Below are positions 3,147-5,125 of a stretch of 5,125 nt of DNA, one piece after another (positions within the stretch are counted from its first letter, which is position 1; each line of letters starts with the position of its first letter). Under the pieces are notes generated by a model. It was not told the origin of the DNA and did not search any database. It was given only the letters and a program-made list of their open reading frames with translations. The position numbers were made by a program, and so were the translations under genes. The DNA comes from a virus (lineage: Duplodnaviria; Heunggongvirae; Uroviricota; Caudoviricetes): the IMG/VR virus record IMGVR_UViG_2617270949_000004; one strand, given 5' to 3'.

Positions 3147-3701
3147 TTATTTTAAGGAAAGCAACTGCTCTACGGTCATATTTTTAATTGCGCTCCGGTT
3201 TACAAGAGTCCAGCCTTGTTGCTCCAGATAAAACAGGAAGGTATCCAGGGTGCAGACCATTGCGCCGTCAGGAACGGTTTCAGTGAATTTGATATTGCCG
3301 TGTTCGTCGAGACGGATAACCAGGGTGCGTCCGTCCCCGTGAATCATTTTGTCGGGAGACGGGGCGTTATTCTGGCGCAGTTCAGCTTCCATGCGGTCGA
3401 ACTCAGCAATGTATGCCTCTTTAAATGCAGCGGCTTTTTTGCCAGTGAAGCCCATCACCAGGAAAACGAAGCCGTTTTTGGTGATTTGGTACATTGGGAG
3501 TTTGCGCCCGGTTGAGTCGGTGTATTCGCTCGACACAAAATTGTGCTCAGTGAATTTTGCTGAACAGTCCAGATTGCGAATTTTATCCAACACTCGTTCG
3601 TGGCGTTTGCCAAAGAACTCGGCGATCGCAACAGACGTAGTGACAGCGCGACCATTTTCGATGGTTACGTCAGGGTGAGAAAGGGTAAGGATAGTAGCCA
3701 T
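3147..3701 (-). CDS. Phage regulatory protein of the Rha family (antirepressor-like), about 184 aa
   Basis: Minus-strand ORF with start at ATG 3701-3699, preceded by GGAGG 8 nt upstream; stop at 3149-3147. N-terminus MATILTLSHPDVTIENGRAVTTSVAIAEFFGKRHERVLDKIRNLDCSAKFTEHNFVSSEYTDSTGRKLPMYQITKNGFVFLVMGFTGKKAAAFKEAYIAEFDRME fits the Rha-domain pattern (FGKRHxxVLxxIRNL ... Y.D..GR....Y.IT..GF..LVMGFTG.KA..FK..YI..F). The in-frame upstream extension to 3998 crosses a terminator hairpin and is considered less likely. Confidence 0.7.
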   Translation of the reverse strand: MATILTLSHPDVTIENGRAVTTSVAIAEFFGKRHERVLDKIRNLDCSAKFTEHNFVSSEYTDSTGRKLPMYQITKNGFVFLVMGFTGKKAAAFKEAYIAEFDRMEAELRQNNAPSPDKMIHGDGRTLVIRLDEHGNIKFTETVPDGAMVCTLDTFLFYLEQQGWTLVNRSAIKNMTVEQLLSLK

Positions 3702-3865
3702 GATGGCAGCCTCCGCGATGAATTTGATTAACTCACCACCGAGGTTTTCCACGACCATAAGGGTGGTGAGACGTACAGGGGTGGAAATACCGGTCATCAC
3801 GGAACCCGGCCAGCCTTGCGGCTGCCCTGCACGCCCCACCATAATGCGAATGTGGCTGTGCTTAA

Positions 3866-3898
3866 CGCATAAAAAAACCGCCTGAGCGCGGTTATGCG
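3866..3898 (-). terminator. Putative rho-independent terminator in minus-strand orientation, upstream of the Rha gene
   Basis: Minus-strand RNA would read CGCAUAA-CCGC-GCUCAG-GCGG-UUUUUUU-AUGCG: a GC stem (AACCGC/GCGGUU, loop GCUCAG) followed by a run of 6-7 U. Outer arms CGCATAA/TTATGCG add a larger imperfect palindrome. Confidence 0.5.
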
Positions 3899-4063
3899 CC
3901 GTGAATGATTTCGGGTTTCCACGCCCGGCACCCGTTTTATGAGGTGCAGGTGCACTATAATTCCACCCGTTCTGGTTTTCAATAGCTACATTCAACATTT
4001 TCTCTACCTTTCATCACCGAAGTGAACTTTGTTGATGCGGTGCCTGGTGCCTCCAGGTGATGT

Positions 4064-4084
4064 TAACCAGTTAACAATTAACGC
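4064..4084. repeat. Three closely spaced (G/A)TTAAC repeats (GTTAAC-CA-GTTAAC-AA-TTAAC); candidate protein-binding/operator-like site
   Basis: Direct reading: gttaac at 4064-4069 and 4072-4077 (each self-complementary), then attaac at 4079-4084; preceded by a CCTGG-N5-CCAGG inverted repeat at 4046-4060. No function can be assigned from sequence alone. Confidence 0.25.
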
Positions 4085-4554
4085 CGGATACAGAGAATCC
4101 ACCCATAACACTGTTTTTGGTTTTAACTGTTCCGCGTGCGCTGAGCCGCATTCACCGCATCACAAAATTCACTTTAAAAAGGGCGGCAGAGCAGTCACGG
4201 AGTAAAACTGATACCGCCAAAAGTCACCAGAAAATTGATAACAGAGGGCGTTGCAGCGGAGTTGTTACTTAAGCGTATGGTCAACCTGACAACCCGGTGT
4301 CCTCAACGGGGGAAGGAATACCCCCGCCATACTTACCGCCGCGCCATTTCGCGGAGTGCCACAACCGGAAGCGCACGGTCGAACTAAATTTAACGACACC
4401 GTACAGAGAGACCAATTTCGCCGTGCGCTTTCGCGTTATGCCCTGACTTTTCAGGGACATATCCTTTCAGTAAACTGTCAGTGCCGGATGTTCACCCGTG
4501 TCCGGCGCACGCACTCCACCTGACCCGTGGAGAACTCCTTAATTACCAACCCTC

Positions 4555-4560
4555 AGGAGG
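4555..4560 (+). promoter_or_regulatory. Shine-Dalgarno sequence AGGAGG for the downstream plus-strand ORF
   Basis: AGGAGG ends 5 nt before the ATG at 4566. Confidence 0.55.
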
Positions 4561-4565
4561 GTGAA

Positions 4566-4772
4566 ATGGATAAAAAGCAAATTGAGGCCCTGCAATCTAT
4601 TATTGAAAAACAAGATGAAGCTATCAGGATTCTTTCATATCGCACTGATATGATACTAAATATGCTTTCTGCATTAACGGCTGCGCTTGGTGGTACAAAA
4701 ACAAACGTATACCGCGAAGTTGTTATTCAACAGATAGATAAATTTGAAAAAACCATACCAGGTATTAGGTGA
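4566..4772 (+). CDS. Hypothetical prophage protein (68 aa as it stands), probably 3'-truncated by the IS1 insertion; sits where sieB lies in Rac
   Basis: ATG at 4566 with a strong RBS. Product MDKKQIEALQSIIEKQDEAIRILSYRTDMILNMLSALTAALGGTKTNVYREVVIQQIDKFEKTIPGIR. The last sense codon AGG spans the host/IS1 junction and the TGA stop (4770-4772) lies inside the IS1 left inverted repeat GGTGATG. The upstream GTG at 4527 used by the track is less likely. Confidence 0.55.
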   Translation: MDKKQIEALQSIIEKQDEAIRILSYRTDMILNMLSALTAALGGTKTNVYREVVIQQIDKFEKTIPGIR

Positions 4773-4790
4773 TGCTGCCAACTTACTGAT
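4768..4790 (+). repeat. IS1 left terminal inverted repeat (IRL)
   Basis: GGTGATGCTGCCAACTTACTGAT at the element boundary. The flanking host sequence is ...ACCATACCAGGTATTA; the target-site duplication cannot be confirmed without the right end. Confidence 0.9.
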
Positions 4791-4822
4791 TTAGTGTATG
4801 ATGGTGTTTTTGAGGTGCTCCA

Positions 4823-5098
4823 GTGGCTTCTGTTTCTATCAGCTGTCCCTCCTGTTCAGCTACTGACGGGGTGGTGCGTAACGGCAAAAGCACTGCCGGA
4901 CATCAGCGCTATCTCTGCTCTCACTGCCGTAAAACATGGCAACTGCAGTTCACTTACACCGCTTCTCAACCCGGTACGCACCAGAAAATCATTGATATGG
5001 CCATGAATGGCGTTGGATGCCGGGCAACCGCCCGCATTATGGGCGTTGGCCTCAACACGATTTTCCGCCATTTAAAAAACTCAGGCCGCAGTCGGTAA
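4823..5098 (+). CDS. insA: IS1 InsA (transposition regulator, N-terminal part of the InsAB' transposase), 91 aa
   Basis: GTG start at 4823, stop TAA at 5096-5098. Product [91 protein letters not shown], with a zinc-finger CxxC...CxxC and a helix-turn-helix region. Confidence 0.95.
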
Positions 5099-5125
5099 CC
5101 TCGCGCATACAGCCGGGCAGTGACG
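5017..5125 (+). CDS. insB: IS1 InsB (transposase catalytic part), 5' portion only; continues beyond the window
   Basis: ATG at 5017 in the -1 frame relative to insA, at IS1 position 250. Translation [36 protein letters not shown]... is open to the window end. Confidence 0.85.
5072..5080 (+). promoter_or_regulatory. IS1 programmed -1 ribosomal frameshift site (TTAAAAAAC, A6C motif) producing the InsAB' transposase
   Basis: TTAAAAAAC lies in the insA frame just before its stop, in the insA/insB overlap, as in IS1. Confidence 0.8.

Follow-up and report, generated by a model that had tools for sequence, protein, structure and literature searches.

The minus-strand stretch at positions 3702-3998 of the window (the whole 5,125-nucleotide (nt) stretch of viral DNA analysed here) lies directly before a gene for a Rha-family regulator and has its closest described counterparts in the RNA immunity systems of phages P1 and P7, satellite P4 and the lambdoid prophage Gifsy-1. 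In P1 and P7, as Citron and Schuster reportedly described in 1990 (cited in PMC8201110), the loops of an antisense RNA pair around the ribosome-binding site (RBS) of the next open reading frame (ORF) and control the antirepressor, with differences between loops giving heteroimmunity. In P1 and P4 the 5' ends of C4 and CI arise by processing; RNase P is the enzyme assigned to the excision of C4-class RNAs. For P4, the portion of PMC10111431 that summarises Forti et al. (1999) places the CI RNA and seqA inside the gene eta and describes Kil as a truncated in-frame product obtained on read-through; according to the same portion, full-length Eta comes only from an upstream late promoter, in coupling with the gene before it, and translating it keeps transcription from terminating. 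Some IsrK transcripts of Gifsy-1 continue past the terminator into orf45-anrP, giving a longer RNA that is processed to STnc1160; a helix joining the middle of IsrK to the orf45 region has been defined by mutation, and IsrK binds Hfq (PMC4825925). The same architecture has already been noted in 'Bro network' genes carrying Phage_ASH and Phage_pRha domains (PMC10111431).

From the sequence, the ORF list and matches to Rfam and Pfam, we think it probable that 3702-3998 is an RNA immunity cassette of the P4/P1/Gifsy-1 type, in which a C4-type antisense RNA would gate the Rha start at ATG 3701 and a long overlapping frame would be the counterpart of eta. Its components all belong to curated families and their combination is already described for P4, P1 and Gifsy-1, so that no new mechanism is involved. 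The locus is in a Rac-like prophage, where the cassette lies between dicF/dicB' and the recE region with its effector fused in frame.

For comparison we fetched 22 related loci from E. coli genomes and phages, with 54-100% identity in the cassette stretch. One of these (L001) is near-identical to the window and was left unscanned; the window and 22 copies from the other 21 loci, P4 included, make up the 23-copy set to which our counts refer unless stated otherwise. A scan of IMG/VR with the C4 core provided an independent viral set of 106 distinct copies, of which 103 have isrK upstream and 102 were parsed. Gifsy-1 was taken by accession and did not surface in a BLAST search from an E. coli relative.

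The cassette begins with a sigma70-type promoter at 3954-3982 on the minus strand (-35 TTGAAA at 3982-3977, 17-nt spacer, -10 TATAGT at 3959-3954), which scores 10/12 and is the sole strong sigma70-like site in a scan of the whole window. Its -10 element ends 6 nt before isrK model position 1, placing the start at about 3947, and a -35/-10 pair stands at a fixed distance from that position in 23/23 copies, where it is made up of at least five hexamer pairs scoring 8-11/12. There follows a small RNA (sRNA) of the IsrK family, the counterpart of the P4 seqA leader, at 3871-3947 on the minus strand (Rfam RF01394, match 3947->3871, 67.7 bits against a gathering score of 50, E = 2e-13, model positions 1-77). 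It consists of hairpin 1 (3947-3928), which covaries across the copies, hairpin 2 (3927-3912), whose loop holds the segment b1 (GUGGAAA, 3922-3916), a segment a1 at about 3908-3899, and a terminator.

This intrinsic terminator (3871-3893, minus strand) is the one that a first-pass annotation of the sequence had placed upstream of Rha, in the orientation of the early-left genes, and it holds up well. The hairpin scan of the minus strand finds a stem (3893->3876) of six pairs, four of them G-C, with a 6-nt loop, followed by seven T (the U-run, 3877->3871); the core hairpin folds with -9.2 kcal/mol, or -13.8 kcal/mol with flanking pairs, and its end lies 170 nt upstream of ATG 3701. The pattern is not above chance, the window holding 3 terminator-like sites against 6.9 +/- 2.7 in shuffled sequence. 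We regard the terminator as real not from its pattern score but because it is the 3' hairpin of the Rfam isrK match and because an equivalent hairpin and U-run are kept in 23/23 copies, in which the stems differ yet remain self-complementary through compensatory changes. As far as sequence can tell, the terminator is thus part of a short transcription unit of its own, forming the 3' end of the IsrK-like sRNA.

The space of 165 nt that seemed to separate the terminator from the Rha start, and that had been treated as mere spacer, is filled by a structured RNA gene. It holds a C4-type antisense RNA at 3759-3846 on the minus strand, the counterpart of P4 CI and of Salmonella STnc1160, with a full-length match to Rfam RF01695 (3846->3759, 81.9 bits against a gathering score of 45, E = 1.3e-15, model positions 1-87). 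The family has a long closing stem and two hairpins, and this is also the shape that the window copy takes in its minimum free energy fold (-47.3 kcal/mol). Among the 27 consensus pairs, 14 show compensatory double changes, with at most one broken case per pair. Two segments of this RNA are exposed for pairing: a', the loop of hairpin 2 (3805->3794), and b', a single-stranded UUUCCAC (3787->3781), with unpaired probabilities of 0.84 and 0.99, respectively, in the fold of the read-through leader. The first is complementary in 11/11 pairs to a site a2 (UCAUCGCGGAG, 3711-3721, minus strand) that overlaps the GGAGG Shine-Dalgarno (SD) sequence (3713-3709) of ATG 3701, and the loops pair with the Rha RBS region. 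The second matches a site b2 (GUGGAAA, 3746-3752, minus strand) in 7/7 pairs, at a fixed position and in co-variation with b', and also pairs 7/7 with b1 in the IsrK-like RNA (3922->3916). Complementarity of a' to the a1 site of the window is limited to 6 contiguous pairs, offset or degenerate, the weakest of the 23 copies and to be compared with 8-12 in most relatives. C4 positions 5-7 hold a conserved AUG (3840-3842, minus strand) that lies in the long frame and is positionally the same as the first AUG of Gifsy-1 orf45.

The likeness to P4 extends to the order of the parts (by Rfam, isrK corresponds to the seqA leader at 887-964 and C4 to CI at 1072-1159 of the P4 locus, L022), the geometry of the promoter, the complementarity of a' and b' to upstream and downstream sites, a long in-frame ORF that starts before the internal promoter, and coverage of the region by Pfam Phage_ASH. 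The long frame of P4 has forms of 214 and 199 codons, the latter matching the 'P4 ORF199' named in the ST64B annotation. In P4 an SD and ATG 55 nt after the RNA open a 65-codon ORF, which from its size we take to be kil; its start codon aligns with ATG 3701, and its N-terminus, MATTLTPSHPEF, resembles the MATILTLSHPDV found there. The two loci differ in what follows, a 65-residue product and then epsilon and replication genes in P4 but a Rha regulator of 184 amino acids (aa) and then recombination genes in the window, as well as in the spacer between isrK and C4 (107 nt in P4, 24 nt in the window) and in their host element, a satellite as against a Rac-like lambdoid prophage.

Gifsy-1 shares with the window a lambdoid prophage setting, the promoter, an IsrK with a leaky terminator, a C4-type RNA (69 bits) and an a2 site over the SD of an antirepressor-type gene. 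By sequence comparison, the positions mutated in Gifsy-1 correspond to b1 and b', and orf45 lies in the same frame as our long frame: it starts at the AUG of C4 positions 5-7, runs for 45 codons and ends in a TGA that overlaps the anrP ATG. In Gifsy-1, then, orf45 stops and is coupled to anrP, whereas in the window the frame has no stop, is fused to Rha and extends upstream past the promoter. The effectors show a weak C-terminal similarity (24% over 75 aa), and the Gifsy-1 cassette adjoins the late antiterminator gene antQ, whereas that of the window lies in the early-left recombination region. The immI region of P1 and P7 (c4 - icd - ant1/ant2), which we compared through family membership and the literature rather than through the P1 sequence, shares the RNA family RF01695, and a weak match to the Rfam family c4-a1b1 at 3960->3908, below threshold (25.7 bits against a gathering score of 46.7), corresponds to the upstream a1/b1 sites. 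P1 differs in having a separate small gene, icd, between c4 and ant, whereas the RBS targeted in the window is directly that of Rha.

Co-variation of recognition loops and target sites

The tandem of isrK and C4 is above the Rfam thresholds in all 21 further fetched loci (22 copies), P4 included, and also in Gifsy-1. Pairing of a' and b' was measured by loop-restricted scans, as duplexes of whole C4 against the flanks gave only uninformative full-length duplexes. The 23 copies carry 21 distinct a' sequences, each of them matched at fixed places by an a2 over the downstream SD and by an a1 in isrK; b' is likewise matched at fixed sites. Helices between a' and a2 average 10.5 base pairs (bp) in cognate combinations and 5.6 bp in non-cognate ones, and those between a' and a1 average 8.9 bp as against 5.1 bp. 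The viral set behaves in the same way: its 102 parsed copies hold 42 a' types and 19 b' types in 64 combinations, with a median a'-a2 helix of 11 bp for cognate and 6 bp for non-cognate pairs. The target also keeps its place relative to the start codon, an SD and ATG following C4 at 50-58 nt in 23/23 copies and lying in the a2 window in 92/102 viral copies. The copies are phylogenetically related and are not independent trials. This three-way co-variation between one loop and two targets argues strongly that what selection maintains as the function of the cassette is its RNA interactions.

Individual relatives show how the two recognition segments are combined. Relative L002, which is 90% identical to the window, has a matched a'/a1/a2 set of a different type, and the window itself has perfect a2, b1 and b2 sites; the comparison suggests recent specificity switching or recombination. 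The window a' pairs 11/11 with the a2 site of L004, and the b' segments of these two loci differ. Similarly, L010 combines an L003-like a' (one base different) with the b' of L004, and L011 combines the a' of L006 with an L009-like b' (one base different). These mosaics point to a and b segments that reassort independently, and so to a modular two-part specificity.

Several relatives (L018, L046, L047, L066 and L096) have two or three isrK-C4 cassettes in tandem, spaced by about 610-660 bp and differing in their loops, and in L018 the cassettes at 1204-1401 and 1816-2013 each precede a gene annotated as 'derepression protein'. E. coli genomes that match a 341-nt query from the cassette do so at a median of 2 places per genome, and at up to 9. 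A more speculative proposal, to which we give little credence, is that the family as a whole constitutes a combinatorial two-part RNA address code, through which co-resident prophages and satellites would gate their own antirepressors or cross-talk via a shared segment; the window locus might then yield as many as three Rha isoforms nested in one frame (283, 231 and 184 aa) and answering to different inputs, and its weakened a1 could bias the switch towards a locked-off state. In practical terms, the variety of its loops makes the family a natural and tractable source of orthogonal RNA switches.

The long reading frame and the Rha starts

The first-pass annotation had also noted a 283-aa frame running from ATG 3998 through the hairpin into Rha, and this too is borne out: the frame (3147-3998, minus strand) is open to its stop at 3147, and includes in frame the ATG 3701, 58 nt after C4, that opens the short form (3147-3701, minus strand; 184 aa, starting MATILTLSHPDV). 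The 283-aa form is the one annotated by the Prokaryotic Genome Annotation Pipeline (PGAP; WP_032279698.1), and joins an Ash domain to Rha in the manner of P4 eta. Its ATG (3996-3998, minus strand) lies 51 nt upstream of the IsrK start and has a moderate SD (AAGGU, -4.9 kcal/mol). ATG 3701 is clearly the best of the three candidate starts, with -9.5 kcal/mol, and AUG 3842, which would give a 231-aa form, is essentially without an SD (-0.4 kcal/mol). The Rha domain lies wholly inside the short form (Phage_pRha, PF09669, 106.4 bits against 29.9, aa 120-204 of the long form; TIGR02681, 106.7 bits against 45.95, aa 109-210). Upstream of it, Pfam Phage_ASH (PF10554) matches aa 14-109 of the long form over profile positions 1-105 of 107 (60.8 bits against a cutoff of 26).

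That Phage_ASH match spans exactly isrK, C4 and the RBS (nt about 3959-3672), which favours a purely RNA interpretation in which the 283-aa frame is never translated, Phage_ASH is a family of translated RNA genes, the long annotation is an artefact and ATG 3701 is the only start. In keeping with this, each change in the RNA specificity loops also alters the amino acids of the Ash stretch; the frame is closed in 3/23 fetched and 34/103 viral copies in which the RNAs are intact; ATG 3998 is absent from the cassette's own transcript; and the 'cI protein' annotation of P4 was historically wrong, the immunity factor being an RNA (PMC10111431).

We examined the frame through stop triplets per frame and the phase of insertions and deletions, since constraints on RNA stems and on the loops and their targets confound substitution patterns. 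Over the cassette the three frames hold 86, 7 and 62 stop triplets, the 7 belonging to the long frame. The depletion is specific to that frame and includes hypervariable and spacer segments, as seen in the variable spacer (6/1/3) and in the segment between C4 and the ATG (33/2/21). The long frame is open through both RNAs in 20/23 copies, against 0 and 4 for the control frames, and in 69/103 viral copies against 16 and 24, so that it is open 3-4 times oftener than the controls. Insertions and deletions are mostly phase-preserving, the distance from isrK to C4 keeping the phase of the frame in 84/103 viral copies. Judged by these statistics, the long frame is under selection to stay open in most lineages, though not in all. 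Translation in the same frame is moreover reported by experiment in Gifsy-1 (orf45; PMC4825925) and, in the portion of the source that deals with eta, in P4 (PMC10111431). We consequently reject the idea that the long ORF is a pure artefact of translated RNA genes as the sole explanation, on the frame statistics and the P4 and Gifsy-1 precedents, and think the purely RNA interpretation as a whole unlikely.

What had looked like an ambiguous Rha start is most likely a nested-gene arrangement, to judge from the reading frames. In the fetched copies with an open frame and an in-frame ATG upstream of isrK, that ATG always lies before the isrK start, from -51 in the window to -669. Since the internal promoter starts transcription only beyond ATG 3998, the RNA that it makes has no way of encoding the long form. 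It had also been proposed that conserved coding across 3702-3998 would speak against the terminator, but the two are not exclusive: relatives keep both the open frame and the terminator, as do the nested eta and kil of P4.

A proposed switch and the routes of transcription into Rha

By analogy with these systems, the immunity cassette could work as follows. The constitutive-looking promoter (3982-3954) would start transcription at about 3947, and most transcripts would probably stop at the terminator (3893-3871), giving an IsrK-like RNA of ~77 nt. Transcripts that read through would carry C4 (3846-3759), which is probably excised as a stable RNA. Because a2 overlaps the SD of ATG 3701, pairing of a' with a2 (3721-3711), accompanied by that of b' with b2 (3752-3746), should block translation of the short Rha form, and the block would in turn lead to premature, presumably Rho-dependent, termination, leaving Rha and the ydaE-like, racC-like and recE genes silent from the cassette promoter. 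The IsrK-like RNA, with its perfect b1 and weakened a1, could pair with C4 in cis or in trans and so modulate the switch. ATG 3998 would be translated solely on transcripts from further upstream, that is, from the dicF-dicB' early-left operon, and ribosomes coming from it and crossing the terminator and the C4 region would override both blocks. The cassette thus predicts RNA-based immunity over the expression of Rha and probably, for transcription from the cassette promoter, also over the downstream recE region.

A number of considerations weigh against this scheme. The functional steps at the window locus (leaky termination, processing of C4, translational repression, any involvement of Rho and the making of the 283-aa protein) are all taken over from homologues. 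The sign and dominance of each interaction are uncertain because the antisense RNA represses in P4 and P1, whereas in Gifsy-1 the short IsrK activates in trans. The degenerate a1 of the window means that the interaction between IsrK and C4 may be weaker here. About a third of the viral copies have no open frame, which means that the family can do without translation through the cassette, and since the copies are not phylogenetically independent our counts overstate their statistical strength. Finally, the insertion of IS1 at 4768 (see below) cuts the cassette off from the upstream operon in the window strain, and may have prevented or altered read-through from upstream.

The opposite sign in Gifsy-1 suggests another mode of action, in which an IsrK-like RNA acting in trans opens the structure around AUG 3842 and so permits synthesis of a 231-aa Rha, C4 serving mainly as a structure of the mRNA. 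The layout of the locus is like that of Gifsy-1, with the conserved in-frame AUG at C4 positions 5-7; from AUG 3842 the window frame runs without a stop before Rha; and the Gifsy-1 genetics back both a helix of the b1:b' type and the translation of orf45 (PMC4825925). In the window, however, AUG 3842 is essentially without an SD, whereas a2 lies exactly over the strong SD of ATG 3701; pairing by IsrK requires a1, which is weakened; and the effector protein differs from AnrP. Positive control of this type strikes us as quite improbable here.

For the way in which transcription reaches Rha, the first-pass annotation had offered two routes. The first, read-through from a promoter further to the right, is right in outline, in that the terminator must be passed; the relevant promoter, however, lies within 3702-3998 itself (3982-3954). 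The accompanying proposal of lambda tL-like logic would make the hairpin an operon-internal terminator, passed on a transcript from an early prophage promoter with the help of an N-like or Q-like antiterminator acting at nut or qut. In the relative L001, which is free of the insertion sequence (IS), the genes indeed share the orientation of the early-left operon that follows racR, and expression of recE requires that the terminator be passed. Neither strand of the window holds a boxA (CGCTCTTA) within one mismatch, boxB not having been searched for systematically, and no N-like gene was seen in the window or in L001, although there was no systematic search and none beyond these two. Furthermore, every copy has a dedicated promoter 55-90 nt before the terminator, which is itself part of an sRNA of a known family, and the same cassette occurs in P4, P2-like and phage-inducible chromosomal island (PICI)-like contexts without N-type systems. 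Lambda-type antitermination is thus unsupported and we consider it very improbable; the precedents are instead a leaky sRNA terminator, antisense control and translation-dependent read-through (Gifsy-1, PMC4825925; P4, PMC10111431). The second route, an independent promoter inside 3702-3866 that drives Rha, would in principle supply the 5' end that C4 needs near 3846, but we give it almost no credence, since the promoter scan of the window finds no promoter-like site in that interval, the spacer between the terminator and C4 differs among groups of relatives and is without common hexamers, and removal of PisrK in Gifsy-1 abolishes downstream transcription and STnc1160 (PMC4825925, Table 1A). 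In P1 and P4, moreover, it is processing that generates the corresponding 5' ends.

Genomic surroundings and annotation

Upstream of the cassette on the same strand lies the DicF sRNA (4181-4232, minus strand; full-length Rfam match, 75.8 bits against a gathering score of 48), which places the cassette inside an early-left operon of the dicF-dicB type. Between them is a 35-codon remnant ORF (4004-4111, minus strand), a dicB' pseudogene in RefSeq relatives that PGAP describes in L001 as 'DicB, missing C-terminus'. Its TAG stop (4006-4004) is 5 nt before ATG 3998, close enough to allow translational coupling of the long frame. A match to STnc100 at 4028-4169 on the minus strand, below threshold (32.3 bits against 47), overlaps dicB', and L002-L005 have corresponding matches of 30.8-40.6 bits. 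Several relatives have a truncated dicB' before the cassette and a full-length dicB after the Rha gene (L002, 1089-1172 and 2068-2256; L004; L005), as though the isrK-C4-Rha module had entered dicB near its 5' end and a short piece had been duplicated in the process. The window has no dicB in the place after Rha but a YdaE-family ORF.

Identity to the IS-free relative L001 stops at 4768, where an element (4768-5125) cuts a plus-strand ORF (4527-4772). We take this element to be IS1 from its InsA-like ORF (4823-5098). It stands between the cassette and the part of the operon nearest racR. At the junction there is a promoter-like site on the minus strand (4752-4781; TTGGCA, 18 nt, TATGGT, with a TG extension) that has its -35 in the IS1 end and its -10 in the flank and that faces DicF, dicB' and the cassette; it could be a hybrid outward promoter created by IS1 and replacing the severed upstream one. 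Further downstream, a strong terminator-like hairpin on the plus strand (2468-2490; 10 pairs, 6 of them G-C, with a T-run) lies between the recE-like start (2399) and a 107-aa ORF, and faces the opposite way to the operon.

Once the cassette is recognised, ATG 3701 is established as the regulated start of Rha and the terminator is accounted for, and the corresponding correction of annotations applies widely: the 341-nt query matches 2572/5426 complete E. coli genomes, many of the matches being partial. The RefSeq/PGAP annotation of L001 gives one 283-aa 'Rha family' protein, and neither RNA is among the features returned for that stretch. Elsewhere among the relatives the cassette stretch is labelled Rha, ash family, Icd-like, Ant, 'cI protein' or hypothetical, or carries no label. 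Where the RNA genes lie, PGAP has 'ash family' pseudogenes and 'Icd-like' proteins (for example L020, 984-1539), P88 has a hypothetical protein called on the opposite strand over isrK-C4 (L013, 1208-1396), and the RefSeq record of P4 still lists a 137-aa 'cI gene product / transcriptional repressor' (L022, 995-1411). In phage GER2 a further sRNA match, to sRNA-Xcc1 (L015, 1830-1913; 75.7 bits against 53), lies ~500 nt downstream of the C4 copy.

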